The notes below the pieces were generated by a model. That model searched no databases and had not been told where the DNA came from. It worked only from the letters and a program-made list of their open reading frames with translations. From IMG/VR virus record IMGVR_UViG_3300043119_000443: 64,000 bases of DNA. One strand, 5' to 3'. This DNA is from a virus (lineage: Duplodnaviria > Heunggongvirae > Uroviricota > Caudoviricetes). Below are positions 11,441 to 64,000 of this stretch, piece after piece; position 1 is the first letter of the stretch, and each line of letters begins with the position of its first letter. The translations under genes and the position numbers were made by a program.

Positions 11441-11446
11441 ACAGGC

Positions 11447-11455
11447 GTTAACCAT
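11447..11455 (+). promoter_or_regulatory. GTTAACCAT motif (CtrA half-site-like) upstream of packaging genes
   Basis: Exact TTAACCAT 11448-11455, 22 nt upstream of TerS-candidate ATG 11477. Confidence 0.35.
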
Positions 11456-11476
11456 TGTGCCATCTTGCATGGCGCA

Positions 11477-12103
11477 ATGATGACCATGCCTGATCTCCCC
11501 GTCCCTGAACACCTGAAGTTCACGATGGACAAACTGCCCAAGCTACTCCTAGCTCTGGGTGAAGAGCCCGTGGAGATTCGAGCGTGCAAGAAGGCGAGCA
11601 TCCATCCGGTCGCGCTGGCGTTCGCCCGCAAGGCCGACCCCCAGCTCAACGAGATGATTGAATTCGCGATACAGATTGGCTTCTCTGTAGTCGAAGAGCG
11701 TATCTACGCCCGGAGCATGGGTGAGAACCGCACGCCGAAGTATTTCGAGGGCAAGCCCCTGACCTACATCGATCTGGAGACGGGCGACACGCGGTACGTC
11801 TACGAGGAAAGCCAGAGCGATTCGCTGCTGAAGAAGTTCGCGGAGCGTATCCGGCCCGACCTGTACGGCGACCAAATCCAAGTCAAGGTGGACAACCGCA
11901 CGACCCTCTATCTGCCGGAGGAAGTCATGGCTGACCAATTCGAGAAGCTTCTCGCCGCACAGGCGGACAAGACCCGGCTTATCCAGTCGGAAGGCCTGCA
12001 AGGCATGATGGACCGAATTGACGCCGCTGGTCGCACTCCCCCTATTGACGCGGAGTTCCACGAGGTCCATGAAGAGGATGACGATCTCGCGGGGCTGACC
12101 TAA
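11477..12103 (+). CDS. putative terminase small subunit
   Basis: Immediately upstream of and TAATG-coupled to the large terminase; ORF tool start TTG 11465, first ATG 11477; call is by position only. Confidence 0.45.
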   Translation: MMTMPDLPVPEHLKFTMDKLPKLLLALGEEPVEIRACKKASIHPVALAFARKADPQLNEMIEFAIQIGFSVVEERIYARSMGENRTPKYFEGKPLTYIDLETGDTRYVYEESQSDSLLKKFAERIRPDLYGDQIQVKVDNRTTLYLPEEVMADQFEKLLAAQADKTRLIQSEGLQGMMDRIDAAGRTPPIDAEFHEVHEEDDDLAGLT

Positions 12104-13536
12104 TGGTGACCATGGTTGCTGATGCTGTGATGCCCCAACCGGGCTCACAAACGCTGTTCCTCCAGTCCAGCAAGATCAAGGAAGTCCTGTTCGAAGGCGA
12201 GCGCGGCCCCGGCAAGACGTGGTCCATGCTGTTCGCATTCGCCCAGCACACCGGCAAGGGATACGGCTCACACTGGCGCGGCGTGATCTTTCGTCGCGAG
12301 AGCGGCGACCTCGACGACATCATCGAAAAGTCGAAGCGGGAATTCGGGCGGATTTACCCGGACGCGATCTACAACAAGACCGAGAAGACGTGGGTCTGGC
12401 CGGGCGGCGAGATGCTGACCTTCGCACACTTCTTCGACGAGAACGATTACTGGTCGTGGCACGGTCAGGAATTGCCCTTCATCGGATGGGAAGAGTTGAC
12501 GACGTGGCCCTCGAACAAGGGCTATCTCAGCATGTTCTCGTGCAACCGTTCCGCCGGTCCGATTAACATGCCGCGCATCATTCGATCGACCACGAACCCG
12601 TACGGCGTCGGCAAGAACTGGGTCAAGCGCCGGTTCAAGCTCCCAAGCCATCGGTACAAGGTCTGGCAGGAAGTCGAGGACGATGGGCTGATGTCCCCGC
12701 CCCGTCTCGCCATTCCAGGATTTCTTATTGAAAACAAGATACTACTTCGCACTGACCCGCGTTATGTGCAGACGCTTAAGCAGTCTGCGGCAGGCAACCA
12801 AGAGAAGCTGAAAGCTTGGCTCTTTGGTGACTGGGACGCGGTGTCGGGCGGCATGTTCGACGACATCTGGAACGCTGGCGTCCATGTCGTCAAGCCCTTC
12901 TATATCCCGAACACATGGACGATCCGACGGGCGTATGACTGGGGCGGTGCCAAGCCCGGCTCGTACGGCCTATGGGCGGAAAGTAATGGTGACTGCGTCG
13001 AGGTTGGGCCGGGCAAGTATCACGGCCTCGTGCCCGGCGATAGCTTCCGTATCGGCGAATGGTACTCGACTAGCGGCCAAGAGGATGAGGGCCTGAACCT
13101 CACGCCTCTGGAGATCGCCAAATGCATGGTCGAGTGCGAGGAACGGGCGGGCGTCCGCGGTCGCGTCACGGCTGGCCCGGCTGACGTGAACATATTCGAC
13201 AAGAGCCACGGGCGATCGATTTACGATACGCTCCGGGCCGACCCGTTCCATCTCCGATTCGACATGGCGGACAAGGGTCCGAACAGCCGGAAGATGGGCT
13301 GGCAAGTCGCGCGCGAGCGTTTGCTGAACTCCATTCCGGGTGAATTCGGAACACGTGAGCGCCCCGGATTGTTCATCTTTAGCACATGCACTCACTTCAT
13401 TGATTTGGTGCCTACGCTGCCGCGAGACTTGAAAGACCCAGATGATGTTGATACAAAGAGCGAGGATCACATCGGCGACGAACTCCGTTACTACCTGCGG
13501 AGGGCTTCACGTCGCGCCGGACGACAGCGAGGATAA
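12103..13536 (+). CDS. terL: terminase large subunit
   Basis: Walker A GERGPGKT near N-terminus, 477 aa, followed by portal gene. Confidence 0.9.
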   Translation: MVTMVADAVMPQPGSQTLFLQSSKIKEVLFEGERGPGKTWSMLFAFAQHTGKGYGSHWRGVIFRRESGDLDDIIEKSKREFGRIYPDAIYNKTEKTWVWPGGEMLTFAHFFDENDYWSWHGQELPFIGWEELTTWPSNKGYLSMFSCNRSAGPINMPRIIRSTTNPYGVGKNWVKRRFKLPSHRYKVWQEVEDDGLMSPPRLAIPGFLIENKILLRTDPRYVQTLKQSAAGNQEKLKAWLFGDWDAVSGGMFDDIWNAGVHVVKPFYIPNTWTIRRAYDWGGAKPGSYGLWAESNGDCVEVGPGKYHGLVPGDSFRIGEWYSTSGQEDEGLNLTPLEIAKCMVECEERAGVRGRVTAGPADVNIFDKSHGRSIYDTLRADPFHLRFDMADKGPNSRKMGWQVARERLLNSIPGEFGTRERPGLFIFSTCTHFIDLVPTLPRDLKDPDDVDTKSEDHIGDELRYYLRRASRRAGRQRG

Positions 13537-15734: not shown

Positions 15735-15737
15735 CGC

Positions 15738-15746
15738 GTTAACCAT
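15738..15746 (+). promoter_or_regulatory. GTTAACCAT motif adjacent to TTGAC, upstream of scaffold gene
   Basis: cTTGACgcGTTAACCATgttctgCCATTTTGG directly after GH108 stop. Confidence 0.35.
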
Positions 15747-15841
15747 GTTCTGCCATTTTGGGGTCACTCGAAAGGCGTGAGGCCGGTCGGGGATCGTGGC
15801 GAGAGGCCACAGCACTACCCCAAAGCGCGAGGCAAAGGGAC

Positions 15842-16684: not shown

Positions 16685-16697
16685 CCATTAACCATGG
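16685..16697 (+). promoter_or_regulatory. CCATTAACCATGG motif + TTGACA-like element upstream of capsid gene
   Basis: gCCATTAACCATGGACTTGACagtccatcaatgg, 130 nt upstream of capsid ATG 16826. Confidence 0.35.
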
Positions 16698-21848: not shown

Positions 21849-21862
21849 CCATTAACCCTAAC
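21849..21862 (+). promoter_or_regulatory. CCATTAACCCTAAC motif upstream of 21889 gene
   Basis: Same 14-mer core recurs at 23191 and 62484. Confidence 0.35.
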
Positions 21863-23190: not shown

Positions 23191-23206
23191 GCATTAACCC
23201 TAACGG
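23191..23206 (+). promoter_or_regulatory. GCATTAACCCTAACGG motif 10 nt upstream of tape measure start
   Basis: Repeat of the 21849 and 62484 core. Confidence 0.35.
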
Positions 23207-23215
23207 TGCTTAACG

Positions 23216-26119
23216 ATGGCTACCCAGCCTATTGTCATTTCGGTCACGGTGAACGGCGCGAACAACGCCGCTCGCCAGATCACGAATGTCGGCACCGCCG
23301 CCGGTCGCGCGGAGCGTTCCGTCTTCAATCTGCGCAACCTGCTTCTCGGCTTCTCGGTCGTCTCGCTCGCCAAGGGTCTTCTGGCGATCACGGACGTTGC
23401 GACCCGACTGGACAACCGCCTCAACGTGCTGACCGGCTCACAAGCCCGGTCGAACGAACTCTTCCGCGAGCTGCTGAAAGTCTCGAACGATACGCGATCC
23501 GATCTGGAAGAGACGGTCAACAACTACGCGCGCCTCGAACGCTCTACGCAGGGGTATAACCTCACGGGCCGCGAGCTGCTTGATCTCACCAAGGGCATCA
23601 ACCAGTCGTTCAAGATTTTCGGTAACACGTCGGCGGAATCCGCGGCGGCGCTGGTCCAGTTTACACAGGGCCTTAGCGTGGGCGTGTTGCGCGGCGACGA
23701 ATTGCGCTCCGTTTTGGAACAGGCCCCGCGTTTGGCGAAGGCGATCGCGGACGGCTTGAATGAAATCCCGGAGGGTCAAGAACTCGCGGGCAAGTTCGGT
23801 CGTCTGTTCAAGGACTTCGAATCGGGCGCGATCTCGTCGGAGCTTCTGTCGGGTAGCTTGCGCCAGCTCGGCGCGACCGGCAAGCTGACCGGCGAGCTGA
23901 TCACCAAGGCGCTGCTCACCCAGTTGGGCAAGCTCAACGAAGAGTTCGAGCGCACGACGCCCACGATTGAAGACAGCATCACGATCGTCAAGAACAACTT
24001 CATCGCCCTCGCGCGCGATCCGTCGTTCCGTCTTTTCGCCAAGTCGGTGGCGACGGCGCTGATCAACTTCGCGGAAGAAATCCCGAAGGTAGTGGACGCG
24101 ATCAGGCCCTTCATCGTTATTCTGGCTGAAGGTGTCGGCCTTTTCTCGGACCTCATTTCGATCGGCGCGGAATTCGTCGGTGCCATCTCGGAGTTGTTCG
24201 TTAGTCTGGCTGAAACGGCGCTTGGCGCTTTCGGTGTCGTTGCAACCGCGGGTGAAGACTCGGGCGTCACGTTCTCGAAAGTGTTCGTCAACGCTTTCGG
24301 TATCATCTTCAATTCGTTCAAGACGGTCATAGACACTCTTGTCCGGGGTGCCGCTTTCATCGGCGGTTTCATCGCGGGTGTGGCTAAGGACATTTTCCTC
24401 GCATTCGACGTTGCGTTCGACGCTATCTCCGGTGCCGCGGAAGGCCTGATCAACTTCCTGATCGACGGCCTAAATGTGTTCAAAGGCGAAAGTGAAAAGA
24501 TCGCCAAGGTCAATTTCACTTCGGACAACGACCAGTTCAAGAACGAATTCCTCAACCCTCTTGAAGCGGGTACTGATGCCGCGAACAAGATGAGCGCTGC
24601 GGTGGACAAGGTGTTCGCGCCGTTCGAAGTCGCGGGCGAGAAAGCTGGCAATGCGATCGTGGCTTTCAGCCAGCGTTCCGCGGACGCCCTCGCGAAGATC
24701 AGGTCGGAAGTCCAAGAAGTCGCCGACACCGTTAATGAAATTACCGGCGATGCTGAAGCACTGCCGGTAGAAACGCAGTTGAATGCGAATGACCAGCGCC
24801 GTCTGGACAGCTTCCTCGATCGTCTTGCCGATCTGCGCGAAGGCGCGGATAGCGGTGTAGAAGGTCTGCGCGAGCTGAAGCGCGCCCAAGAACAGTACGA
24901 CAAGCTCGCGGGCAACGACGAGATCGCGAAGAAGCTGCAAGGCCGGTCCAAACAGGAAGAAGAATTCGCGGCGCTTCGCACGAAGTACAGCCTGCAAGCC
25001 GTGGCCGACCTCATGCAAGAAAGCATGGCGCAGGAAGACGCCGCGCAATCTTCACTGGATCACTATCGGGCGTATCGTCTGCTTACGAAAGCGCTCAAGG
25101 ACGGCGACGACGTTACGCAAGCGCAGATCGACACGCTCGCCGCCCAGCTTAAGGTCGAGCGCGATGTCATCGACGCTCAGCGTGAGAAGGACAACATCCT
25201 CGACAGCCTGACGCGCAAAGCGGACCAGTACAACGCGGTCCTGAAGGCGACCAACGAGCTGTTGGGCAAAGGCACGATCACCGAACAGCAACAGGCTCAA
25301 TTCCTGAAAGAGACGGACGTTGGCCGCGGCGTGGAAGACGCGAAGCAATTCGTCGCTGATGAATCGTTGAACCCTGAAGACAAGATCGCTCGCGAGCTGG
25401 AGCTGCTTCAGGCAGAAGAAGACGCGCGTATCGCTTTCATTGACGAGGCCGCACTTCTGAACCAAGAGAGGCTGGTGGAGTACGAACAACTCCGTCTCGA
25501 CACGATCGAAGCGTACTCCAAAAAGGAAACGGAAATCCGTCTGGCGGCGCAAAGCCTCCAGTACCAGAACGCATCTTCGGCGTTCGGCGATCTCGCGGAG
25601 CTGTCGAAAGGCTTCGTGAAGGAAAGCTCGGGCGTATACAAAACGCTGTTCGCCGTGTCCAAGGCATTCGCGATCGCTGACGGCTTCGTGAAGCTGAACC
25701 AAGCCATCATGAACGCGTCCGTGTCCCTGCCCTTCCCGGCGAACCTCGCGGCCATGGCGCAAGTCGGTGCGGCTGGCCTCGGACTGCTGGCGTCTATCAA
25801 GGGCGCAGTGGCCCCTGACGTGGCCCTGAAGGACGGTGGCTTCGTTGTCGGCCCCGGCGGTCCGCGAGATGACGCGGTCAACGCGGCGCTCTCGAACGGC
25901 GAATTCGTCGTGCGCGCGGACGCCGCGGCCCGTAACGCGGACTTGCTGGAGGCGATCAACTCTGGCCGATTTAATTCTGGACAAGGCGGCGGTTTGACGC
26001 TAAACCTGACCCAGAACGTGAACGGCGTGACGGACGCGCAAGGCTTCCGCGCATCTGGCCGTCAAGTTGCACAGGATACGGCTCGCGTCGTCGAGCGCGC
26101 CATCGCGAGGAATAGTTAA
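23216..26119 (+). CDS. tail tape measure protein
   Basis: 967 aa, Ala/Leu/Glu-rich coiled-coil, hydrophobic Gly/Ala/Ile/Phe-rich stretches (GAISELFVSLAETALGAFGVVA..), position before distal-tail genes. Confidence 0.85.
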   Translation: MATQPIVISVTVNGANNAARQITNVGTAAGRAERSVFNLRNLLLGFSVVSLAKGLLAITDVATRLDNRLNVLTGSQARSNELFRELLKVSNDTRSDLEETVNNYARLERSTQGYNLTGRELLDLTKGINQSFKIFGNTSAESAAALVQFTQGLSVGVLRGDELRSVLEQAPRLAKAIADGLNEIPEGQELAGKFGRLFKDFESGAISSELLSGSLRQLGATGKLTGELITKALLTQLGKLNEEFERTTPTIEDSITIVKNNFIALARDPSFRLFAKSVATALINFAEEIPKVVDAIRPFIVILAEGVGLFSDLISIGAEFVGAISELFVSLAETALGAFGVVATAGEDSGVTFSKVFVNAFGIIFNSFKTVIDTLVRGAAFIGGFIAGVAKDIFLAFDVAFDAISGAAEGLINFLIDGLNVFKGESEKIAKVNFTSDNDQFKNEFLNPLEAGTDAANKMSAAVDKVFAPFEVAGEKAGNAIVAFSQRSADALAKIRSEVQEVADTVNEITGDAEALPVETQLNANDQRRLDSFLDRLADLREGADSGVEGLRELKRAQEQYDKLAGNDEIAKKLQGRSKQEEEFAALRTKYSLQAVADLMQESMAQEDAAQSSLDHYRAYRLLTKALKDGDDVTQAQIDTLAAQLKVERDVIDAQREKDNILDSLTRKADQYNAVLKATNELLGKGTITEQQQAQFLKETDVGRGVEDAKQFVADESLNPEDKIARELELLQAEEDARIAFIDEAALLNQERLVEYEQLRLDTIEAYSKKETEIRLAAQSLQYQNASSAFGDLAELSKGFVKESSGVYKTLFAVSKAFAIADGFVKLNQAIMNASVSLPFPANLAAMAQVGAAGLGLLASIKGAVAPDVALKDGGFVVGPGGPRDDAVNAALSNGEFVVRADAAARNADLLEAINSGRFNSGQGGGLTLNLTQNVNGVTDAQGFRASGRQVAQDTARVVERAIARNS

Positions 26120-26124
26120 CCATG
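26115..26124 (+). promoter_or_regulatory. GTTAACCATG overlapping start codon of distal tail gene
   Basis: aataGTTAACCATGtcg; ATG 26122. Confidence 0.3.
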
Positions 26125-35858: not shown

Positions 35859-36115
35859 TGTCCGAAGAGCCTGAACAATCCGCCAGCTTCGTTGAGCGGC
35901 ATCTCCAGACGATGATCATGGCCGCGCTCGGCGCTGTCTGCGCGTGGATGGCTATGACCACGCAAGGCCTGACCGTGAGCGTCGCCACGCTGACAGAGAA
36001 GGTATCGAACCTTCAGGCGCAAATAAGCGAACAGGGTGACAACAATTTCGAGTCCGAGATCGCCGACTTGAAGGCCCGCGTGTTCGTTCTGGAAAAGTCG
36101 CTCGACGCCAATTAA
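35858..36115 (+). CDS. membrane/coiled-coil protein (85 aa), possible lysis regulator
   Basis: TM segment IMAALGAVCAWMAMTT then coiled-coil; TAATG-coupled to o-spanin. Confidence 0.4.
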   Translation: MSEEPEQSASFVERHLQTMIMAALGAVCAWMAMTTQGLTVSVATLTEKVSNLQAQISEQGDNNFESEIADLKARVFVLEKSLDAN

Positions 36116-36119
36116 CTAT
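36112..36119 (+). promoter_or_regulatory. TTAACTAT motif next to TTGACTTGCGACTTTGAC
   Basis: aaTTAACTATTGACTTGCGACTTTGACgcag upstream of 36174 gene. Confidence 0.2.
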
Positions 36120-53783: not shown

Positions 53784-53792
53784 GTTAACTAT
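53784..53792 (+). promoter_or_regulatory. GTTAACTAT motif next to TTGAC after primase gene
   Basis: aaCTTGACttctttgGTTAACTATGGctactg. Confidence 0.25.
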
Positions 53793-54158: not shown

Positions 54159-57100
54159 ATGACAACGAAGTTTTATCCCGATCCTGTATCGACTGGCGTT
54201 CTCCCTAACTCGATCACCAACAACGATCTGGTTCAGGTTCCCGCCCTGACGGTTAAGGGTAACCAGACGAACGCGACCGCCGATGTCAACGACATCGCAG
54301 CGTCCACGAACGATCGCCTGTTCGCGCGCGTCTCGGACGTTCTGGCGTTTACCCAGCTCACCAACGGCATGGTCGCGACCAACACCATTGGCCTCGACAA
54401 GCTGGCTGACGCCGCTGCGGTGTCCGTCCTTGGCCGTTCGGCTGGCACCGGCGGTGCTCGCGCCGACATCACGGCAAGCGCCAACGGACAGTTCCTTGGC
54501 CGCTCGGGCGGTACTCTGTCCTTCCAAGCCATCACCGGCGCTCTCGTCTCGAACACTCCGGCGGGCAACCTCATCGCGACTGACGCACAAGGCGCGATCA
54601 ACGAACTTGATTCCGAGAAGGCCGGGCTCACGCTCGCCAACACCTTCACCCAAGACAACACGTTCAACGGGTACGTCTCCGCTGCGTCGCTCCGCATCGG
54701 CGCGAACGAAGTCGTTGACGCGAACCGTATCTTCCGTCCGCGCTCTTATACCATCTCGACTGTCCCCAGCGTCACCGCGACGGGCCTCATCCACGTCTCC
54801 GATCTCGGCGGCGGTGGTGCCACGCTTCAGTCGAACGGCTCCGAGTGGAACCGTGTCAAGGAAGAAGGCACGATCAACGTCACTGTCGATGCCAACCTCA
54901 CTTTCACGTGGGATCGCCTGACCGACGCTCCGGTGACCCGTGCTAACGTCGCTCTTACCGCTGACCGCACTGTCACGCTCTCCACGACTGGATGCGCCAA
55001 CGGTGACCGCGCCGCGTTCGTGCGTTCTGCCGCAGCGACCGGCGCGTTCAACTGGAACATCGCGGGCAACACCACGACGGCTCTGGCCGCGGCTCTGGAC
55101 TGGGTCGTGTACGAGTTCGACGGCACGCAATGGAACATGATCCAGAAGTTCAGCGCGGGCGGCGGTGGCGGCGGCACGTACACCGCTGGCGCTGGCCTCG
55201 ACCTCGTTGCGGATGAGTTCTCTATCGAGACTGGCGGCGTTGTCGAAGGTATGCTCGCCAACGATGCGGTCACGTTCGCGAAGATGCAGAACATCGCGAC
55301 CGACCGACTGATTGGCCGCGATACGGCTGGCACGGGTGATCCGGAAGTGATCACTGTTGGTGGTGGCCTCGAATTCACCGGCTCTGGTGGCATCCAGACT
55401 TCAGCCTTCACGGGCGATGTCACGAAGTCCGCTGGGGGCACGGCCCTCACGATCGGCAACGATGCCGTCAGCTTCGCGAAGATGCAGAACATCGCCAGCG
55501 ATCGTCTGATCGGTCGCGACACCGCCTCGACCGGCGATCCCGAAGAGATCACTGTCGGTGGCGGTATCGAGTTCACGACGACTGGCGGCATCCAGACTTC
55601 GGCCCATACGGGCGATGTCACGAAAGCCGCTGGCGGCACTGCGACTACGATCGCCGCCAACGCCGTGTCGGATGCCAAGTTCCGCCAGAGTGCGGCGCTG
55701 TCCGTCGTTGGCCGTTCGGCCAACTCTACCGGCAACGTCGCTGATATCGCAGCGGGCGCAAACGATCGTCTTCTGACGCGCGTCGCGGACGTTCTCGCCT
55801 TCACGCAGATCACCAATGGCATGATCCCTGTCAACACCGTTGGCGTTGACAAGCTCGCTGTGTCCGCTACGGACCGCCTCGTTGGCCGTGATACGGCTTC
55901 CGCTGGCGCAGGCGAAGAGATCACTGTCGGCGGTGGCCTCGAATTCACCGGCTCTGGCGGTATCCAGACGACGGCCTTCACGGGCGATGTCACCAAGACC
56001 GCGGGTGGCACTGCGCTGACGATCGCTAACGACGCGGTGTCGTTCGCGAAGATGCAGAACATCGCTACTGACCGACTGATTGGCCGTGACACGGCATCGA
56101 CGGGCGACCCCGAAGAGATCACTGTCGGTGGTGGTATCGAGTTCACGACGACTGGCGGCATCCAGACTTCGGCCCATACGGGCGATGTCACGAAAGCCGC
56201 TGGCGGCACTGCGACCACGATCGCCAACGACGCGGTGACGAACGCGAAAGCCGCCAACATGGCCGCGCGTACCGTCAAGGTCAACGCGACCAACGCTTCT
56301 GCCGACCCGCAAGACCTTCAGGGCACGACGGCTCTCCACGTTCTGCGCGTCAACGCCGCTGGTGATGGACTTGAATTCGGTGCTGTGACCAGCGGAACGA
56401 CTTACACGGCTGGCGCGGGCCTCGACCTTGTCGCCGATGAATTTTCTATCGAGGCGGGCGGCGTGGTTACGACCATGCTCGCCAACGACAACGTCACGTT
56501 CGCGAAGATGCAGAACATCGCCAGCGATCGCCTGATTGGCCGTGACACTGCATCGACGGGCGATCCGGAAGAGATCACTGTCGGTGGCGGTATCGAGTTC
56601 ACGACGACTGGAGGCATCCAGACTTCGGCCTTCACCGGCGATGTCACCAAGACCGCTGGCGGAACGGCCCAGACGATTGCCAACAACGCCGTCTCCGACG
56701 CGAAGTTCCGCCAAAGTGCGGGCGTGTCCGTCGTCGGTCGTTCTGCCAACTCTACCGGCAACGTCGCGGATATTACCGCTGCGGCCAACGATCGTATCCT
56801 GACGCGCGTCTCTGACGTTCTTGCGTTCACTCAGCTCTCGGACGGGATGGTGCCGACCAACACCATCAGCGCGACTAAGATGGCCCTGACCGCGACTGAC
56901 CGTCTTATCGGTCGCGACACCGCTTCCGGCGGTGCGGGCGAAGAGATCACGGTCGGTGGTGGCCTTGTGTTCACCGGCACCGGCGGTATTCAGACGACGG
57001 CCTTTACCGGCGATGTCACCAAGACGCTTGGGGGCACGGCCCTCACGATCGCGAACAACGCTGTCACCGACGGCAAGTTCCGCCAGAGCGCGGCCACGTC

Positions 57101-58475
57101 TGTCGTTGGACGTTCGGCTGGCACGACTGGCGACGTTGCGGATATCGCCGCGGCGACCAACGGTCACTTCCTCGGTCGCTCGGGCGGCACGCTGTCGTTC
57201 CAAGCAATCACCGGCGCGCTCGTCACCAACGTCGCAGCGGGCAACATCGTCGCGACCACTGTGCAGGATGCGATCAACGAGCTGGATGGCGACAAGGCCG
57301 GGCTCACCCTCGCTAACATTTTCACTATCGGTCAATTTATTCGCACGACTACGGCTGTTGCGCTCAACTTGGATGGCGACGGGGCCTCTCCCGCAATCCG
57401 TCAAACCCGTTATGGTGCGGTAAGCGGCGCTTCGAACTTCGACCAGCGTAAGGCGCGCGGTTCGTTCGCCTCACCGACGGCGGTGCTTACCAACGACATC
57501 CTCTCGCAGAACATTTCGTCAGGGTACGGCGGAACGACGTTTCAACAGGCGTTTGTAGCGGCAGTTACGGTCATCGAGACTACTCCGTCCGACACGGCGA
57601 TGGGCTCGCGATGGACGGGCGAACTTTCGGCTATTGGTAGCGTCACGCCGACCGAGATTTTCAGGTGGGAAGTCGCTACCGGCTTCTCAATGTACGGTGC
57701 CAACCCCGTTATCGACAACAACCGTATCTTCCGTCCGCGGTCCTACACCGTCTCGACGCTCCCGACTGTCACCACGACGGGTATCATCCACTGCTCCGAT
57801 CTCGGCGGCGGTGCCGGTACGCTCATCTCGGACGGCACGGGCTGGACGCGTGAAGACACCACTGGCACGATCACGATCGCGACCGACGCCGGACACACCT
57901 TCACGTGGGATCGCCTAACGGACGCTCCGGTCACGCGCGGCAACGCTACGCTGACTGCGAACCGCACTGTTACGCTGTCCGGAACCGGATGCCGCAACGG
58001 CGACCGCGCCATGTTCGTCCGACTCGGTGGCGGTGCGTTCAACTGGAGCATCGCGGGCGGCACGACCTTCGACCTGACCGCCGCGAACCAGTTCTGCACG
58101 TTCGAGCACGACGGCACGTCTTGGAACATCATCGACGCGGGCAACATCTCCATCTCTGGCGGTAGCTCTGGCGTGGCCGTGGAAGAAGAAGGCGGTGCCG
58201 TCGCCACGGCGACCACTTTGAATTTCATCGGCTCCGGCGTTACCGCTACCAACGCAGGCGGCGGACAGGTGGATGTCACTATCTCTGCGGGCGGTGGTGT
58301 GGACGTGGAAGACGAGGGCGCTGTCGCTCTCGCCGCGGCCACTACCTTGAATTTCGTCGGTGCTGGTGTTACTGCTACGAACGCTGGCGGCGGACAGGTG
58401 GATGTCACCATTCCGGGGAACTCCGGACCTTCTCTTGGTCTGTATCTCGGTATCCGTAGCTCAATGTACTTTTAA
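54159..58475 (+). CDS. giant repeat-rich fibre-like protein (1438 aa)
   Basis: Gly/Thr/Ala-rich; ~8 tandem ~63-aa units (DRLIGRDTASTGDPEEITVGGGIEFTTTGGIQTSAHTGDVTKAAGGTATTIANDAVSFAKMQNIA...) and duplicated N-/C-proximal domains. Confidence 0.7.
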   Translation: MTTKFYPDPVSTGVLPNSITNNDLVQVPALTVKGNQTNATADVNDIAASTNDRLFARVSDVLAFTQLTNGMVATNTIGLDKLADAAAVSVLGRSAGTGGARADITASANGQFLGRSGGTLSFQAITGALVSNTPAGNLIATDAQGAINELDSEKAGLTLANTFTQDNTFNGYVSAASLRIGANEVVDANRIFRPRSYTISTVPSVTATGLIHVSDLGGGGATLQSNGSEWNRVKEEGTINVTVDANLTFTWDRLTDAPVTRANVALTADRTVTLSTTGCANGDRAAFVRSAAATGAFNWNIAGNTTTALAAALDWVVYEFDGTQWNMIQKFSAGGGGGGTYTAGAGLDLVADEFSIETGGVVEGMLANDAVTFAKMQNIATDRLIGRDTAGTGDPEVITVGGGLEFTGSGGIQTSAFTGDVTKSAGGTALTIGNDAVSFAKMQNIASDRLIGRDTASTGDPEEITVGGGIEFTTTGGIQTSAHTGDVTKAAGGTATTIAANAVSDAKFRQSAALSVVGRSANSTGNVADIAAGANDRLLTRVADVLAFTQITNGMIPVNTVGVDKLAVSATDRLVGRDTASAGAGEEITVGGGLEFTGSGGIQTTAFTGDVTKTAGGTALTIANDAVSFAKMQNIATDRLIGRDTASTGDPEEITVGGGIEFTTTGGIQTSAHTGDVTKAAGGTATTIANDAVTNAKAANMAARTVKVNATNASADPQDLQGTTALHVLRVNAAGDGLEFGAVTSGTTYTAGAGLDLVADEFSIEAGGVVTTMLANDNVTFAKMQNIASDRLIGRDTASTGDPEEITVGGGIEFTTTGGIQTSAFTGDVTKTAGGTAQTIANNAVSDAKFRQSAGVSVVGRSANSTGNVADITAAANDRILTRVSDVLAFTQLSDGMVPTNTISATKMALTATDRLIGRDTASGGAGEEITVGGGLVFTGTGGIQTTAFTGDVTKTLGGTALTIANNAVTDGKFRQSAATSVVGRSAGTTGDVADIAAATNGHFLGRSGGTLSFQAITGALVTNVAAGNIVATTVQDAINELDGDKAGLTLANIFTIGQFIRTTTAVALNLDGDGASPAIRQTRYGAVSGASNFDQRKARGSFASPTAVLTNDILSQNISSGYGGTTFQQAFVAAVTVIETTPSDTAMGSRWTGELSAIGSVTPTEIFRWEVATGFSMYGANPVIDNNRIFRPRSYTVSTLPTVTTTGIIHCSDLGGGAGTLISDGTGWTREDTTGTITIATDAGHTFTWDRLTDAPVTRGNATLTANRTVTLSGTGCRNGDRAMFVRLGGGAFNWSIAGGTTFDLTAANQFCTFEHDGTSWNIIDAGNISISGGSSGVAVEEEGGAVATATTLNFIGSGVTATNAGGGQVDVTISAGGGVDVEDEGAVALAAATTLNFVGAGVTATNAGGGQVDVTIPGNSGPSLGLYLGIRSSMYF
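55180..57070 (+). repeat. in-frame tandem coding repeats inside giant gene (approximate bounds)
   Basis: ttcgcgaagatgcagaacatcgc recurs at 55273, 55471, 56053, 56497; unit ~190 nt, nested in larger ~440-580 nt super-repeats. Confidence 0.7.
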
Positions 58476-58487
58476 GGAAACGCAACC

Positions 58488-58901
58488 ATGGTCGCCAACG
58501 TCGAACCGATTTTCACCCACATCCCGAACATCGGGATCGCGGACGCATGTACCGCCGCCAACACGACGAAAGACCTCACGTCGGGCACGAGCTATCTCGC
58601 GTTCACGGCGGGCGCAGACGGGGCGTTCCTTCAGAAGCTCACCATCAGGCCGAAGGGTACGAACGCGGTCACGGTTATGCGCGTGTTCCTCAACAACGGC
58701 GGTGCGACGACTACGGCCACGAACAACGTGCTGTTTGCAGAACTCAGCTTGCCCGCCACGACCAACGTCGAAAACGCTTCGATCGTGGGCTACGAGTTGC
58801 CGATGAACATCGCTCTCCCGGCTGGCTGGCGCGTCTACGTCACGCTCGGCTCGGTCGTCGTCGGTGGCTACGCAGTGTCGGGTGTCGGTGGAGACTACTA
58901 A
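58488..58901 (+). CDS. hypothetical protein (137 aa)
   Basis: TAATG-coupled to first Gly-rich gene. Confidence 0.4.
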   Translation: MVANVEPIFTHIPNIGIADACTAANTTKDLTSGTSYLAFTAGADGAFLQKLTIRPKGTNAVTVMRVFLNNGGATTTATNNVLFAELSLPATTNVENASIVGYELPMNIALPAGWRVYVTLGSVVVGGYAVSGVGGDY

Positions 58902-59749
58902 TGCTCTCCAACACACTAAACATCCGTAACGAGAAGCGGACGTTCAAGTTCTTCTCTCGCGGGGTGGACTACCAACCGTATAGTCCGTCGCCGGAAGCCG
59001 TCGCTATTCAGATTTTCGCAGTCGGAGCTGGCGGCGGCGGCGGACGAGGCTTCACGGGCATCGCGGGCGCGGCTCGCGGTGGTGGCGGCGGGGGCGGCGG
59101 GGGTGGTATCCTCCGGGCTGTCCTGCCGACGTTCCTGCTCCCCGATACAATCTTCCTGAAGCCGGGCATAGGCGGTGCGACTACCGTCGCAGGTAGCGCC
59201 TCCGTCATCAGCCTTCGCCCCATCGACGCAACGGCCAACAATATCTATACGGTCGGCGGTGGCGGTGCAGGCGGTACTGGTACGGGCGCTGCGGCGGGCT
59301 CTGCGGGCTCCGCAGGCGTCATCGGTACCAACGGCATATTCTCGGACCTCGGTGTGTTCCTGTCGATCGCTGGCCTCGCTGGCGTGGCAGGCGGCGGTGT
59401 TGCTGCTGCCGGTGTCAGCATCACACCGACGCGTATCGTCTCGGGCGGCGCGGGCGGCGCGGGCTGTACCGGCGCGGACCTCGCGGGTGGCAACATCACC
59501 GCATCGGGCTTCTTCCCCCTTATCTCCGGTGGGGGCGTCTCTGGCGGCGAAGGCTTCAGCGGTATCACGTCTTGGAAACCATTCTTCGCATCGGGCGGGT
59601 CGGGTGCTGGTTCGTTCAACGCTGGCCCCGGTGGGCGTGGTGGCCCCGGCGGCATAGGTTCCGGTGGCGGTGGCGGCGGCGCGGGCACAACCGGCGGCGA
59701 CGGCGGACGTGGCGGCGACGGCATCATCTTCATCACCGAACTCTTCTAA
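58901..59749 (+). CDS. glycine-rich protein (282 aa), paralog 1
   Basis: KRTFKFFSRGVDYQPYSPSPEAVAIQIFAVGAGGGGG...GGDGGRGGDGIIFITELF; long poly-Gly tracts. Confidence 0.55.
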   Translation: MLSNTLNIRNEKRTFKFFSRGVDYQPYSPSPEAVAIQIFAVGAGGGGGRGFTGIAGAARGGGGGGGGGGILRAVLPTFLLPDTIFLKPGIGGATTVAGSASVISLRPIDATANNIYTVGGGGAGGTGTGAAAGSAGSAGVIGTNGIFSDLGVFLSIAGLAGVAGGGVAAAGVSITPTRIVSGGAGGAGCTGADLAGGNITASGFFPLISGGGVSGGEGFSGITSWKPFFASGGSGAGSFNAGPGGRGGPGGIGSGGGGGGAGTTGGDGGRGGDGIIFITELF

Positions 59750-59765
59750 TCGACGGGAGACAGTA

Positions 59766-60620
59766 ATGTTCTACGATCCGTCGAACATGCGCCAAACCAA
59801 GCGCACGTTTAAGTTCGTCTCTCGCGGTGTGGACTGGCAGGCGTTCCTTCCCTCGCCGGAAGCCGTCGCGCTTGAAATCTTCATGGTCGGTGGCGGCGGC
59901 GGTGGCGGCAATGGCTTCTCACGGGGCGCGGGCGCTCCGGGCGGTGGTGGCGGCGGCGGTGGTAGCGGCGGTATCTTCCGGGCTGTAATCCCGACCATTC
60001 TTCTGCCAGATACGATCTTCCTGAAACCGGGCATAGGTGGCGCTGCTGTCACTGCGGGTAGCGCCTCCATCATCGGTCTGCGCGCGGCTGACTCCACTAC
60101 TTCCAACATATACACGGTGGGTGGAGGTTCTAATGGTGGTACGGGCACGGCAGCGGCAGCGGGCACTCTAGGCAACGGGGGCGCGGTCGGCACCAGTGGC
60201 CTGTTCTCTGACTACGCTGACTTCCTCGCGATCGCTGGTCAGGCTGGCGTAGCCGGGGGCGCGCAGACTGGTGCAGTGGGAGCCAGCGTGACACCGTCGC
60301 GTATCGTGACGGGCGGCGCTGGCGGTGCTGGTTGCACCACAACCGACTTCGCGGGTGGCAACATCACCGCGACCGGGCTTATCCCCCTAGTGTCGGGCGC
60401 TGCGGGCGGCACTGGCGAATCGGGCAGCAACGGCCTTTCGAACTTCAAACCCTTCCTGTCCTGCGGCGGTGCGGGCGGTGGCTCGCGCAACACCTTCAGC
60501 GCTGGCGCGGGTGGTCAAGGTGGCCCCGGCTCTGGCGGCGGTGGCGGTGGTGCGGGTGTCACCGGCGGCGCGGGTGGACGTGGCGGCGACGGCGTGATAT
60601 TCATAACTGAAATCTTCTAA
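59766..60620 (+). CDS. glycine-rich protein (284 aa), paralog 2
   Basis: Same architecture as 58901..59749, colinear along whole length (KRTFKFVSRGVDWQAFLPSPEAVALEIFMVGGGGGG...GGAGGRGGDGVIFITEIF). Confidence 0.55.
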   Translation: MFYDPSNMRQTKRTFKFVSRGVDWQAFLPSPEAVALEIFMVGGGGGGGNGFSRGAGAPGGGGGGGGSGGIFRAVIPTILLPDTIFLKPGIGGAAVTAGSASIIGLRAADSTTSNIYTVGGGSNGGTGTAAAAGTLGNGGAVGTSGLFSDYADFLAIAGQAGVAGGAQTGAVGASVTPSRIVTGGAGGAGCTTTDFAGGNITATGLIPLVSGAAGGTGESGSNGLSNFKPFLSCGGAGGGSRNTFSAGAGGQGGPGSGGGGGGAGVTGGAGGRGGDGVIFITEIF

Positions 60621-60634
60621 GGGAAGGAACCCCC

Positions 60635-61132
60635 ATGGCCTTTACTGAAACGACCCACTCGACGACGTTCTACGCCCAGATGTACGATCCGGCCAAACCG
60701 GAGCGTGGCTTCGGCGCGTTCGTCAATCGCGTCACGGTCAAGGAATACGAGGATGGCACTCGCGTCGTCGAGCCGGAAGTCCAGAAGGACATGGCCGTCG
60801 CCGTGAAAGAGGGTATCACCCTCCCGTCGGTGCTGGCCGAATTCAACATGATCTCCGCGGCGCGCGTCGTGGAGCTGGAAGCGATCGTCAAGGTTGAAGA
60901 TGACGAGAAAGCCGCTCTCAAGTCTCAGGTTGAGCGTATGACCGCCCAGATCGTCGAGCTGCGCGAAGTCCTGATCGAGACGGCGCAGGCATTGCGCGAC
61001 GCCACGAACGGTGCTGAAGTCGCTCGGGTGGACGCCTCCCTGATGTCCAGCGCAGACGCGATCGCCACGGTTGATGCGATCAAGGCCGACAACAACAAGT
61101 CGATCTGGAACCCGCTTAGCTGGTTCCGTTGA
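60635..61132 (+). CDS. hypothetical protein (165 aa)
   Basis: Follows Gly-rich paralogs; coiled-coil segment. Confidence 0.4.
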   Translation: MAFTETTHSTTFYAQMYDPAKPERGFGAFVNRVTVKEYEDGTRVVEPEVQKDMAVAVKEGITLPSVLAEFNMISAARVVELEAIVKVEDDEKAALKSQVERMTAQIVELREVLIETAQALRDATNGAEVARVDASLMSSADAIATVDAIKADNNKSIWNPLSWFR

Positions 61133-61139
61133 TACAAAC

Positions 61140-61167
61140 CCTCGGTACTTGGCCGTAAGTACCGAGG
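61140..61167. terminator. bidirectional terminator hairpin between convergent genes
   Basis: CCTCGGTACTT-ggccgt-AAGTACCGAGG perfect 11-bp stem. Confidence 0.5.
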
Positions 61168-61169
61168 AA

Positions 61170-61616
61170 TCACTTCTTCAGCTTGACCCAACGGACCTTG
61201 CCGCCGGTCTTGGTGTCGTACTTGCACGCGATCCGAACGGCCTGTTGGGGTGTCGCCCCCATTTCGAGCGCGCCCAGCGCCACGTCAGCGCCCGTGCCAG
61301 CGACAAAGAAGTCACCCTCGACGACGTGATAGCCAAACAGATCGTGGAACTCGACGTTACCGTCCGGCCTGACGAGGATCGCTTGCGCCTCGCGCCCTTC
61401 GACGCCGAAACCGGGGCGGTCCCCATATTCCTCATCGTTCATGAACCAGTCAACGATCCGGGTCGCTAGGGAGGCCGTCCCAGCCACGCCTATGAGCGCG
61501 CCGTCCTTGGCACGTCGGAATACCTTCCGCATCGACATCTCTCTTGTAGTGCCATAGGTGAGCTGGGAATCGCCCGCCATCACCCCATGCTTCCGAGAGA
61601 AGACAATCGTGGTCAT
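61170..61616 (-). CDS. HslV-like N-terminal-nucleophile peptidase (proteasome beta-type fold)
   Basis: MTTIVFSRKHGVMAGDSQLTYG...KVFRRAKDGALIGVAGTASLA...GTGADVALGALEMG parallels the HslV Thr1-TIV..R..G.V..GD.Q.T.G.......KV.RL...V..GFAG and GSG...A.GA blocks. Confidence 0.6.
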   Translation of the reverse strand: MTTIVFSRKHGVMAGDSQLTYGTTREMSMRKVFRRAKDGALIGVAGTASLATRIVDWFMNDEEYGDRPGFGVEGREAQAILVRPDGNVEFHDLFGYHVVEGDFFVAGTGADVALGALEMGATPQQAVRIACKYDTKTGGKVRWVKLKK

Positions 61617-62005
61617 ATCAACCCGTCCAATTCATCATCAGGCGTTAAATCTGCAATGATGCAATCGTGCTTGTCATCGACGATTTGGTCAAGATCGACG
61701 GGGGTGTCATCCCCCAGATCGTCCTGTTCGATGGGGGTACTATCCCCTTTCTTGGAACGCCTTTTCGACTGGGTGCCATGCCCCGTATCTATGAGCCCGG
61801 CCCGTGTGTCATTTATGTCGCCGACGTAGGTGTCGATCGTCTTGCCGCCGCGTTTGCTGTCAAGGTACTTTCGCACCTTGGCCTGAATTTCCTTGGAGGG
61901 GCACCGGATGGTGAGGATGTCGGAGCCGCCGTATTCCTTCACGGCTTGGTCGCAAACTTCCCTGATCTGTTCGTCGGTCGAAAGCCAGTTGTCCGCCATG
62001 TGCAT
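61613..62005 (-). CDS. hypothetical protein co-transcribed with HslV-like gene (130 aa)
   Basis: 4-nt ATGA overlap with HslV-like gene; acidic C-terminus. Confidence 0.4.
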   Translation of the reverse strand: MHMADNWLSTDEQIREVCDQAVKEYGGSDILTIRCPSKEIQAKVRKYLDSKRGGKTIDTYVGDINDTRAGLIDTGHGTQSKRRSKKGDSTPIEQDDLGDDTPVDLDQIVDDKHDCIIADLTPDDELDGLI

Positions 62006-62192
62006 CTCGATTGCATGAATTCGCGATTTCGAGGCTTATCAGACTGTCAGATAAATGTCCACATTTTTCTGACGGAGTGTTTGCGGCCCAGCTTCGACCT
62101 CGCTTTTGGCGCGTCTATGGCCGGGCCGCGTCACACTATCCGGATGTCGCGCTTGGGGCAGGGGTGCCAAGACGGGAGGGACGTGGAATTCG

Positions 62193-62321
62193 AATTTGGA
62201 TGAGGCCGCGGAAAAAGTCAATCTTGAAATGCTGGGAGGCCGCGGGGGACTTCAGACTCGGGACGCTGGGAGGCCGCGGGGGACTTCAGACTCGGCCATG
62301 GTTTGCATGAAATTTGGATGA
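62193..62321. repeat. tandem 31-bp direct repeat (x2, 34-bp period) flanked by 11-bp direct repeats AATTTGGATGA
   Basis: GCTGGGAGGCCGCGGGGGACTTCAGACTCGG at 62231-62261 and 62265-62295; AATTTGGATGA at 62193-62203 and 62311-62321. Confidence 0.7.
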
Positions 62322-62334
62322 AAAATCCGGCGCG

Positions 62335-62560
62335 GCGTTATGGTTAACGCGAATTAAGGTTAATGAAACGAAACCGCCGTTAGGGTTAATAGCAACGATC
62401 GCTGTTAATCTTAACACGTGGCGGTGGTCGCGTTAAGGAATCGCGTTAATCTTAACAGGTCGTACCCTATGTGATGTGGGCCGGGGTAGGGAATTAACCC
62501 TAACTCCCGGCCCGGTGTAAAAATCGGCCGATTTGCCATTAACTATCCGCCATTGGACAT
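62335..62560. promoter_or_regulatory. AT-rich intergenic cluster of TTAA / TTAAC boxes (iteron-like), candidate origin or regulatory hub
   Basis: ATGGTTAAC (62340), TTAA x2 (62354, 62360), GGTTAAT (62384), GTTAATCTTAACA x2 (62404-62416 and 62445-62457), TTAACCCTAAC (62484-62494), CCATTAACTAT (62537-62547). Confidence 0.45.
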
Positions 62561-63219
62561 GGTCGCCTCCATTGCAGCGCCCCAGTCGGGTCGGGGCCGG
62601 GGGTGAGATTTTGGATCACCTCCTTTCGTCCGGCATGACGCCGGGATGTCTTCAGCGTTGCACGATCCGGGCCACGCTTCAAGCCCGCCGCCAGTACGGG
62701 GAAGGTTTTCGAATTCCGAGCCGCCACGGATCGCGGATCATGGTCCACATGAAAAGCGTCCAGTGATCCGCAAAGCGCCCCCATTGAAAGACTCGGATAG
62801 GCTCTAGCCCGGTCCTGCGTCGCCAGTGGGCGAGGGGTTCGCCATGGCGGGCCGGTGGGGAGCCCGGCGGCAGGCGATCTTGCCAGCGACCGCCGTACGC
62901 GCGCCGGTTCCGTCTCAGGCTGGCATGGCGGCAGGGCATGTCAATGCTCTCCGTCGGGGTGAAGCTTGCGCAGACGCGCGCGTTGGCGGGAGCGCGATTT
63001 GCTCGCCGCCTTCTTCTTTGCGTCCGGAACGATGACCGGGCGAAAGATAGGGAGCGCAAGGTTGCGCGCCGGGACGTTGCGGGGCTTAGGGGGTTCTCTC
63101 TTCTTCACGGTCCACCTGTCGGTTGATGATCCGCTTTTCATGCAAGGGCAATGCCGCCCAGTTCCATCCGTGATAATCGACCCAGTCGCCGCGCGTGGTG
63201 AGATGTTGCCGGACCTTGA

Positions 63220-64000
63220 TCATGCCGCCACACGCGCCTTGGGAGCGTCCACAAGCCGGTCGCTCTCGACGATGACCAGCGCCGACTTGGCGCGCGTCAC
63301 AGCGACGTAACACAGGTTGCGTTCCTGCTGCTGCTGCCACGGTTGCGTGGCCCATTTGGACGGGCACAGGGAGCGGTCCAGCCAGAAGACGCGGTCAGCC
63401 TCCAGACCCTTCGCCTTGTGGATCGTGCAAAGCGTGGTCGCGTTGCGCACGTCTTCAAACAGCGTCCGGATGATGTCCAGAAGCGCCGGGATGGTCCGCG
63501 CGTTTTCGTCCAGCGAGTCGATCAGGCAAAGGATCGCGTCCACCTTGTCGGCGACTGCCGCCGCCTTGGCCGGTTGCTTCGCAGCGGTCGCTTTCTCGAC
63601 CTCACGGTCGCGGAACGCCGAAAGCTTTTCGACCAGCCGGTCGATGCCTTTCGCGCGCTGCTTTTCGATCAGCTTCACCAGACCCTCGCCGATCTCTTTT
63701 CCGAGAATGCGGACCGGCTTGCGCGCCTTCAGCATTTTGTAGCCGAGGGCGATCAGGGGCTTGGTATTGCGGCAGACGACAAGGTCAGCCGGGGCGAGCA
63801 TGTCCAGCGACCAGTCCGCCATAGTGTCAACCGTGCCTTCCGGGGCCGTGGACGCGGGCAGGATGTGGCCGACCCACTGGCGCGCGTAGTTCACCACGGA
63901 TTGCGCACAGCGATAGGACACGCTCAGGGGGAGCGTGGACGCGTTGAATTCCGAGGCGATCATGCCGAGGCTTTCCGAGTCCGCGCCGCGAAAGCCATAG
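63220..64000 (-). CDS. UvrD/Rep-like SF1 helicase, C-terminal part (5' end outside window)
   Basis: Motif VI YVAVTRAK, TIHKAKGLE; translation upstream of first Met continues open to window edge with YGFRGAD (UvrD motif III). Confidence 0.65.
   Translation of the reverse strand, partial: YGFRGADSESLGMIASEFNASTLPLSVSYRCAQSVVNYARQWVGHILPASTAPEGTVDTMADWSLDMLAPADLVVCRNTKPLIALGYKMLKARKPVRILGKEIGEGLVKLIEKQRAKGIDRLVEKLSAFRDREVEKATAAKQPAKAAAVADKVDAILCLIDSLDENARTIPALLDIIRTLFEDVRNATTLCTIHKAKGLEADRVFWLDRSLCPSKWATQPWQQQQERNLCYVAVTRAKSALVIVESDRLVDAPKARVAA

Follow-up and report, generated by a model that had tools for sequence, protein, structure and literature searches.

Near the right end of a 64,000-nucleotide stretch of DNA from an uncultured siphophage (IMG/VR record IMGVR_UViG_3300043119_000443; approximately 60% G+C), hereafter the window, a gene-poor gap at 62006–62940 lies between the gene for a 130-aa protein and that for a UvrD-type helicase; the gap measures approximately 1.2 kb (62006–63219) when a probably real 66-aa open reading frame (ORF; 62941–63141, minus strand), located between the helicase gene and the region under study, is counted in. 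An earlier note, made from the sequence alone, had marked about 370 bp of this DNA as non-coding, less than the gap proved to span, and had proposed that a tandem repeat and a cluster of TTAA boxes within it form an origin, a pac site or a regulatory hub built from CtrA-type boxes. Here we describe the anatomy of the gap, its conservation among relatives and its likeness to gaps in published phages, and argue that a regulatory hub acting on the minus-strand operon of the 130-aa protein is the probable reading.

A conserved cluster of TTAA boxes

Eleven of the 45 TTAA tetranucleotides of the window fall within 199 bp (62344–62542), where 0.14 would be expected if they were uniformly distributed (Poisson P ~9e-18); in 20,000 uniform placements, 200 bp received at most five. 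The count bears out the at least eight boxes of the earlier note. TTAA is rare in the window as a whole (45 occurrences versus 67 in dinucleotide-preserving shuffles), while the word TTAACCNT is present in 17 copies (1.8 expected) and GCGTTAACCAT in five (0.5 expected), counts that no shuffle reaches. The cluster, in 0.3% of the window, holds 11 of the 45 TTAA and 4 of the 17 copies of TTAACCNT. The AT-rich character ascribed to this stretch holds in that the 150 bp of lowest G+C content in the window start at 62306 (0.44 versus a mean of 0.60), but they lie only marginally below other spots.

The core of the cluster is an array of five or six dyad boxes on the minus strand (62337–62460), candidate CtrA half-site or ungapped-type motifs, whose conserved form, TTAAC(C/A/G)N(T/C/A)TAAY, consists of two TTAA-like halves with a 6-bp period. 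Read towards the operon, the boxes are GTTAAGATTAAC (62456–62445), CCTTAACGCG (62438–62429), GTTAAGATTAAC again (62415–62404), ATTAACCCTAAC (62390–62379), ATTAACCTTAAT (62364–62353) and GCGTTAACCATAAC (62350–62337). Two more stand in plus orientation: ATTAACCCTAAC (62493–62504), inside a hairpin described below as hairpin C, and CATTAACTATCC (62537–62548). The cluster contains one exact TTAACCAT together with variants, as well as GCGTTAACCAT, which is identical to a repeat of Sphingomonas phage vB_StuS_MMDA13; the 12-mer ATTAACCCTAAC has four copies in the window, both strands counted. The duplicated 13-mer GTTAATCTTAACA reported earlier was found at 62404–62416 and 62445–62457. The inverted repeat GCGTTA-tggt-TAACGC, also reported, is present at 62335–62350, but its palindromic flanks are not conserved, only the TTAACC(N)TAAY core.

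Relatives for comparison were recovered through the HslV-like peptidase and the 130-aa protein encoded downstream of the gap. They comprise two IMG/VR loci (L001 and L002), the only ones that a metagenome scan with the HslV-like protein returned, and Logan/JGI contigs (L007–L019), whose 130-aa homologues are 52–100% identical. Relative to L001/L002, the box core (62331–62420) is 95.6% identical and the element at 62299–62330 is 97% / 84% identical; the values are 77–89% for the flanking genes and 39% and 45% for the spacers at 62421–62477 and 62514–62560, respectively. The box columns are invariant among eight loci, and by this comparison the boxes are under strong purifying selection.

The words TTAACCAT, GCGTTAACCAT and ATTAACCCTAAC recur at late-gene promoter regions throughout the window. 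Late-gene promoters at 11448, 15739, 16688, 21852, 23194, 36112 and 53785 carry a box at the −35, in the spacer, at the −10 or at +5, and the box-bearing plus-strand late genes are terS, the ORFs at 15758, 16826 and 36132, and the tape-measure and tail-fibre genes; the offset from the TTGAC-type −35 varies, and the ATTAACCCTAAC copies at 21851 and 23193 lie just downstream of −10-like elements. Likewise, single boxes of the TTAACC type (GCGTTAACCAT, ATTAACCCTAAC and TTAACTAT) are seen at or near TTGAC-type −35 elements before the terS, head/tail, tape-measure and tail-fibre genes. On the plus strand, the single late-gene boxes span 11445–11455, 15736–15746, 16688–16695, 21851–21862, 23193–23204, 26116–26123, 36112–36119 and 53785–53792. 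The same factor may control late transcription through them.

Repeats, putative promoters and leader between the boxes and the operon

The order of elements on the minus strand is kept in eight relatives (L001, L002, L009, L010, L013, L014, L016 and L018), whose 130-aa protein is only 52–81% identical. TTAACC boxes are followed, in some loci, by ...AAATTTCATGCA, then by two or three units of approximately 34 bp, an invariant TTGAC(A/T), a variable 17-nt spacer with a weak −10, a C-rich motif, two hairpins, a palindrome and the 130-aa gene.

In the window, Tandem Repeats Finder identified the units at 62231–62295 with a period of 34, 1.9 copies and a 100% match (unit CCGAGTCTGAAGTCCCCCGCGGCCTCCCAGCNNN, minus strand), each period consisting of 31 identical bases and a 3-base spacer, which confirms the tandem 31-bp direct repeat of the earlier note. 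Within the window the 34-bp unit is confined to this locus; an exact search of IMG/VR did not find the full 31-mer, and its 16-base core was found there only in two known relatives and in chance matches within coding sequence. The eight relatives carry two or three copies directly upstream of a TTGACA −35, with the core TCTGAAGTCCCC-N3-GGCC. The units always stop approximately 9 nt before the −35 of the promoter-like element P1 and therefore occupy approximately −45 to −110, the usual position of an upstream activator, which makes them a candidate activator-binding or architectural site.

Three promoter-like elements, P0, P1 and P2, were assigned from conservation and from sigma-70 consensus scans of the relatives. 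P1 has a −35 TTGACT (62221–62216), a 17-nt spacer and a −10 CAAATT (62198–62193); its TTGAC is invariant in all nine loci, and the spacer and −10 vary. The 11-mer AATTTGGATGA, which had been described as bracketing the tandem repeat, does occur at 62193–62203 and 62311–62321, but the pair is not kept in relatives and the left copy overlaps the variable −10 of P1. The right copy is part of the element TCATCCAAATTTCATGCAAA (62302–62321, minus strand; 97% identical to L001), a possible −10 and start of P0, for which the last dyad box would supply the −35 with its second half. A consensus scan of L010 returned TTAACG-18-TAAAAT at the homologous site; in L013 and L014 the element is missing and a third repeat unit takes its place.

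Downstream of P1 lies a structured leader (62083–62180, minus strand) with a C-rich motif, CCCTCCCGTCTTGG (62180–62167), a small hairpin (62171–62152) and a 10-bp GC hairpin (62129–62083). RNAalifold, applied to the segment between TTGACA and the palindrome in eight loci, gave 20 pairs, of which 12 show compensatory changes. Of the 10 pairs of the GC stem, 7 do so and none is broken. Several leader-stem pairs are G-U, for which the opposite strand would give A-C, and the leader is therefore read as a minus-strand RNA towards the 130-aa gene. The leader is followed by the palindrome CCGTCAGAAAAATGTGGACATTTATCTGACAG (62075–62044), conserved in relatives as TGTCAGAAA...TTTCTGACA, which overlaps P2 (−35 TGGACA, 62061–62056; −10 region, 62041–62033), the two together spanning 62033–62075. 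Scans called TAGACA-17-TATGGT at the P2-homologous site in L010 and L018, and in relatives the half-sites TGTCAGAAA/TTTCTGACA are seen again upstream of the helicase promoter. The palindrome and P2 are a candidate operator and proximal promoter of the 130-aa gene.

The operon itself consists of the gene for the 130-aa ORFan (61613–62005, minus strand), which probably starts in truth at 61999 and encodes a conserved N-terminal domain of 65 aa and an acidic tail, and, as its second gene, that for the HslV-family peptidase (61170–61616, minus strand), followed by an intrinsic terminator (61168–61139, minus strand). The second gene differs between relatives, being HslV-like, Band_7 or that of a 140-aa protein. 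An AlphaFold model of the 130-aa protein was poor (pLDDT 53) and gave no usable structure for a fold search. The helicase gene (63220 to past 64000, minus strand) belongs to the minus-strand block that runs from past 64000 down to 61170.

Comparison with known CtrA systems

The closest published parallels are phage vB_BsubS-Delta of Brevundimonas (hereafter Delta) and MMDA13. A skewed distribution of CtrA sites is described for phiCbK-like phages, MMDA13 and others; CtrA bound probes that were taken from Delta, from phiCbK and from a Mesorhizobium phage, and it repressed expression in Delta and activated it in the others, the bound and repressed fragment of Delta being that of its gap (PMC9437464, Mascolo et al. 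2022). The MMDA13 gap was described with the 12-bp repeat TGCGTTAACCAT (PMC7472734, Marmo et al. 2020); read directly (L004:18720–18990), it contains GTTAACCTTAAT, TTAGGGTTAAC and GTTAACCAT, and the 1312-bp gap of Delta contains nine TTAA-N2-TTAA dyads and six full sites.

Both phages resemble the window in having a low-GC, gene-poor gap of approximately 1 kb that holds most of their TTAA boxes, in the identical box types GCGTTAACCAT, TTAACCTTAAY and TTAGGGTTAAY and the TTAA-N2-TTAA dyads, in the position of the boxes upstream of a small gene without assigned function, and in being siphophages with Pol I-type replication genes. Of the published LPEG signature (PMC9437464), the skewed motif distribution is seen here as the clustering of TTAA and TTAACCNT, judged from counts and uniform placements, and the intergenic, promoter-proximal location is seen in boxes that lie in 62006–62940, upstream of conserved −35 elements and the 130-aa gene. 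The three phages also differ. Full TTAA-N7-TTAA sites number zero here, as opposed to six in Delta by direct count, or 12 according to PMC9437464, and three sites in the MMDA13 gap predicted by the published matrix (same source); there are 11 TTAA here and 30 in Delta; and the gap here lies inside a co-directional gene block, those of Delta and MMDA13 between divergent blocks. The 34-bp repeats adjoining a −35 and the sigma-54-type promoter described below go unmentioned in the portions of PMC9437464 and PMC7472734 used here, and no sigma-54-type motif was found in the Delta gap. The window shares no detectable DNA with Delta or MMDA13, and the phage collection contains no homologue of the 130-aa protein.

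Accepted CtrA motifs include the ungapped motif TTAACCAT and single TTAA (PMC6180460), and the boxes are candidate sites of these kinds. In known systems, a full site near the −35 activates and a half-site over the −10 represses (PMC6180460). As at CtrA-dependent promoters (PMC6180460), TTAACCAT-type boxes overlap or adjoin the −35, spacer and −10 of late genes, and the last dyad overlaps the −35 of P0; in contrast to them, most boxes of the cluster are far from any −35 and the dyad has a period of 6 bp.

We therefore place a probability of approximately 0.6 on the region being a CtrA-type regulatory hub that controls the minus-strand operon of the 130-aa and HslV-like proteins. The claim of a hub in the earlier note is supported by the conservation of the boxes, by the conserved promoter elements and gene downstream of them, by the recurrence of the box words at late-gene promoter regions and by the identity of box types with Delta and MMDA13; the anatomy of the region, its conservation, the covariation of the leader and the box types held in common with published phage gaps are observed directly. 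Within this hub, we put roughly even odds on the binder being CtrA itself; that binder, the firing of the promoters and the sign of regulation are what we infer. Phosphorylated host CtrA would bind the five or six TTAACC dyads, the last of which overlaps the −35 of P0, and its binding would tie the operon and the box-bearing late genes to the cell-cycle or motility state of the host, a logic of 'lytic deferment' as proposed for Delta, phiCbK and MMDA13. A second, candidate DNA-binding factor would probably act at the 34-bp units, for upstream activation or in an architectural role, and P1, downstream of the units, would then yield a leader RNA with the conserved hairpins, leading to the palindromic operator over P2.

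Several points weigh against the hub or against CtrA as its binder. TTAA-N7-TTAA is absent from the window, the two matches found when one mismatch is allowed both lie outside the cluster, and the closest approach to a full site within the cluster is TTAA-N6-TTAA. Most boxes stand 120–290 bp upstream of P1, beyond the range of classic class I/II control. A sigma-70 scan called no promoter in 61000–64000, P1 and P2 falling below threshold in the window itself. Comparison of the 130-aa protein with PHROG, Pfam, NCBIfam, PDB and the phage collection gave no match, and its family has no relative in 185,579 reference genomes and gave no prophage or host clue. CtrA motifs were judged by explicit patterns and not by the published scoring matrix. 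A matrix rebuilt as an additive model from 180 site-score pairs (PMC9437464, Supplementary Table 6) was dropped at a root-mean-square error of 0.89 bits in training and 1.25 on cross-validation, the inexact fit being probably due to genome-specific backgrounds or two-strand scoring; selection bias also shrinks the weights.

An alternative is that the boxes are regulatory but are read by another factor, either a phage regulator, such as the HTH_3 protein encoded at 675–1577, or another TTAACC-binding protein of alphaproteobacteria, with the resemblance to CtrA half-sites being coincidental or partial. We regard this candidate as rather unlikely. The dominant dyad (TTAA-N2-TTAA, TTAACCNTAAY) does have a 6-bp period in place of the 11-bp-spaced CtrA dyad, full CtrA sites are missing from the cluster, and the helix-turn-helix protein is at hand in the window. 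However, the same dyads occur in the Delta and MMDA13 gaps (PMC9437464), in phages that share almost no sequence, and a phage-specific regulator is not expected to share its site among unrelated phages; the occurrence of TTAACCNTAAY in all three therefore points to a conserved host factor. CtrA, moreover, bound the Delta gap probe (PMC9437464). In MMDA13, GCGTTAACCAT overlaps CtrA sites predicted by the matrix; the cluster here has no full sites even at one mismatch.

The sigma-54-type unit and competing readings

On the far side of the boxes from the operon, a second minus-strand unit opens with a sigma-54-type promoter, TGGCCCGGATCGTGCA (62674–62659), in which GG-N10-GC is invariant in seven loci; it conforms to the −24/−12 type, for which the consensus is TGGCAC-N5-TTGCW, with GG and GC 10 nt apart, upstream of a transcription unit. 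It is followed on the same strand by a 5′ hairpin with compensatory changes (62644–62630), a 16-nt Shine-Dalgarno (SD)-like sequence, GAAAGGAGGTGATCCA (62627–62612), which is perfectly complementary to the 3′ end of 16S rRNA and has no start codon behind it, a hairpin between this and a second SD (62597–62579), and the second SD with a mini-ORF (GGAGGCG-N5-ATG...TAG, encoding MSNGG*; 62570–62543). An SD with a mini-ORF of 2–5 codons (MK*, MRK* or MSNGG*) is kept in all seven loci. Hairpin C (62478–62513, minus strand), a GC-rich 8-bp stem with a TTAA box in its upper part and with two compensatory pairs and none broken in six loci, is likely the 3′ end of a short sigma-54-driven transcript. 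Between hairpin C and the boxes, two relatives carry on the opposite strand a gene for an HNH-type endonuclease of 149–151 aa (L010:5034–5483 and L014:75–530, both minus), which suggests that a homing endonuclease has inserted into the regulatory gap; the sigma-54 unit and the box module are therefore separable. On its other side, the unit is flanked by approximately 250 bp of 73–76% G+C (62691–62940), between the promoter and the 66-aa ORF. This segment is ~40% identical to one of equal length in L001/L002, is missing in L013 and looks like a replaceable or hypervariable insert.

The −24/−12 motif (TGGCAYG-N4-NTGCA) is enriched in the window (10 copies versus 1.8 expected). Five near-consensus copies on the plus strand (101–116, 1711–1726, 5044–5059, 6064–6079 and 9124–9139) precede the starts of plus-strand ORFs by 50–90 nt in the stretch from 0.1 to 9.2 kb, and the motif is abundant in relatives (nine copies in L010; also in L001, L013 and L016), always along the direction of transcription. 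The pattern suggests a phage gene set that may depend on host sigma-54. The window proteins scanned included no Sigma54_activat-type protein, some ORFs being unscanned and approximately 15 kb of the genome lying outside the window, and in the searchable literature we came across no account of a (lytic) phage whose gene expression relies on sigma-54 promoters of the host.

Rfam scans gave only sub-threshold matches, to CC2171 (RF01867), an alphaproteobacterial small RNA, and to others. Full-length cmscan alignments of three loci to CC2171 show the 5′ CGAAAGGAGGUGAUCCA-N3-UCUCA and a terminal GC hairpin, at 17.9, 18.4 and 20.1 bits against a gathering threshold of 75; bacterial copies in viral contigs start with GTG and encode a small ORF (MSHCH...), both absent here. 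Membership was rejected, and the resemblance is convergence through the shared perfect SD. Elsewhere in the relatives, in DNA whose counterpart would lie past the window's right end, YrlA (Y RNA-like) matches below threshold with tRNA-like T-arm and D-arm (E 1e-4 to 0.03; L016:250–320, L001:2626–2693, L010:2569–2636 and L013:182–246) lie directly downstream of a sigma-54-type promoter and just upstream of the helicase gene, and are followed by CGTTTCAC repeats and the TGTCAGAAA/TTTCTGACA palindrome.

The main products of the region could be small RNAs, one of approximately 170 nt driven by sigma-54 and ending at hairpin C and another of approximately 110 nt driven by P1 and ending at the leader hairpin, with the boxes and repeats chiefly serving as their promoters and enhancers. 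This candidate complements the hub and, taken as the principal function, seems quite unlikely to us. It would account for a conserved −24/−12 promoter that leads into compensatory hairpins, a 16-nt SD lacking an ORF and a mini-ORF of 2–5 codons, as well as for the C-rich motif CCCTCCCG and the strong hairpin of the leader, and the HNH insertion of L010 and L014 marks the sigma-54 unit as a separate module. Neither hairpin, however, is followed by a U-tract, folding of 62470–62700 shows on neither strand an advantage over shuffled sequence (z = −0.1 and −0.7), and the Rfam scores are far below threshold and explained by the SD. The gap could also be a two-tier developmental switch that reads both levels of the cell-cycle and flagellar hierarchy of Caulobacter type, namely CtrA at the dyads and late boxes, and sigma-54 with an enhancer-binding protein at the −24/−12 promoters, with the 34-bp repeats as the linking enhancer; the sigma-54 promoters may then drive early or accessory genes and a short RNA of ribosome-binding-site look-alikes and the mini-ORF. 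We consider such a switch quite doubtful.

That the region is a replication origin, one of the candidates of the earlier note, we find highly doubtful. It could consist of 34-bp iterons and an AT-rich unwinding region, or be a T7-type transcription-activated origin, in either case gated by CtrA as is the Caulobacter crescentus origin Cori. Direct repeats, the lowest-GC 150 bp and several promoters do occur together, the locus lies at most approximately 1 kb from a Prim-Pol primase gene in relatives, and a T7-like replisome (Pol I, gp2.5-like single-stranded DNA-binding protein (SSB) and primase) would suit a T7-type origin. Nevertheless, the window has 1.9 repeat units and the relatives 2–3, where at least 3–4 iterons would be expected beside an initiator gene; no initiator gene adjoins, and the 130-aa protein has no Rep-like features (no Rep, winged helix-turn-helix or other family match). 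The DnaA box TTATCCACA does not occur, and neither of the two copies of TGATCCACA lies within 62300–62560. The low G+C is barely below that of other spots, and the GC skew, which the earlier note had offered as a check, follows gene orientation with no further switch at the region and is uninformative. The fixed distance of the repeats from a −35 hexamer fits promoter control. Iteron origins and autoregulated rep promoters (lambda ori, P1 oriR) share with the region direct repeats beside an AT-rich stretch, upstream of a promoter and palindromic operator; they differ from it in that only 2–3 long 34-bp units are present here, with no Rep-like gene, no DnaA boxes and an activator-type spacing between unit and promoter. 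At Cori, five full CtrA sites (TTAA-N7-TTAA) are accompanied by DnaA boxes and by an IHF site. Our region is like it in its AT-richer non-coding DNA, clustered TTAA boxes and promoters, but has no full site (nor has the rest of the window) and no DnaA box, and instead shows tandem repeats, a structured leader and a gene downstream, so that the analogy with the Caulobacter origin drawn earlier fails.

A pac or cos packaging site or genome terminus is extremely improbable: several metagenomic contigs of the phage do end inside the region, and the helicase gene is near the record end in distantly related NP1-/PaMx25-type records, but the ends differ (62260, 62363 and 62409) and coincide with exact repeats, L009 and L019 (Logan) break inside the 31-bp exact repeat as expected of an assembler whose words are of about this length, the 64-kb window, L010, L013 and L016 all have the region in their interior, and terS (11465–12103) and terL are distant (together 11465–13536) in a window that has no terminal repeat. 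The contigs concerned, L007, L008, L009 and L019, from the phage or close relatives, end in the repeat and box region at the equivalents of 62260–62409. Ends at differing positions within exact repeats are most simply explained as assembly breaks and not as fixed ends.

PHROG and Pfam scans of the window proteins gave a tailed-phage gene set. On the plus strand, terS, terL and portal genes (11.5–15.2 kb) are followed by structural genes up to approximately 37.8 kb; a T7-like replication block occupies 38–50 kb on the minus strand, with ribonucleotide reductase, deoxynucleoside monophosphate kinase, helicase, Pol I, MazG, gp2.5-like SSB and exonuclease genes; and the Prim-Pol primase and tail-fibre genes lie at 51–61 kb on the plus strand. 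Within the tail-fibre block (54159–58475 and 58899–60620, plus strand), internal repeats (198, 372 and 129 bp) are present in a tail-fibre-like protein of 1438 aa, and two paralogous, glycine-rich minor-tail-like genes, 72–74% identical to each other, follow it. The block is missing in L009 and L010, where the operon of the 130-aa protein adjoins the primase gene.

The helicase DNA is approximately 67–75% identical to helicases of NP1-, PaMx25- and MMDA13-type phages and the portal protein approximately 40% identical to those of YuA-like phages, with no close cultured phage; relatives of the two occur in Sphingomonas, Bradyrhizobium, Caulobacter and Brevundimonas phages. GANTC is depleted five-fold across the window (71 sites observed versus 369 expected), which fits a host with GANTC-specific methylation or restriction, for example by CcrM of alphaproteobacteria. 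The host is probably an alphaproteobacterium. Three of the 71 sites fall in 62255–62442, one in each repeat unit (62255 and 62289) and one in the boxes (62438); as functional sites they were rejected, not being conserved in relatives.

A gap dense in CtrA sites is already known in alphaproteobacterial phages, and the region described here is most likely another case, in an uncultured lineage. It goes beyond the published cases in its 34-bp units at the −35, structured leader, operator and predicted sigma-54-driven short RNA, and it adds direct evidence of purifying selection on single boxes. The fixed architecture of boxes, tandem repeats, −35, structured leader and operator points to the fragments to be used for footprinting and mutation, and the 6-bp-period dyad, present in three unrelated phages and here with no full sites, raises the question of how CtrA or another factor reads it. 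The sigma-54-type promoters would, if confirmed, be the more surprising finding. If CtrA binds the boxes, the phage would be a further, independent example of wiring to the cell-cycle and motility regulator of the host, and would strengthen 'lytic deferment' as a general strategy of alphaproteobacterial phages.

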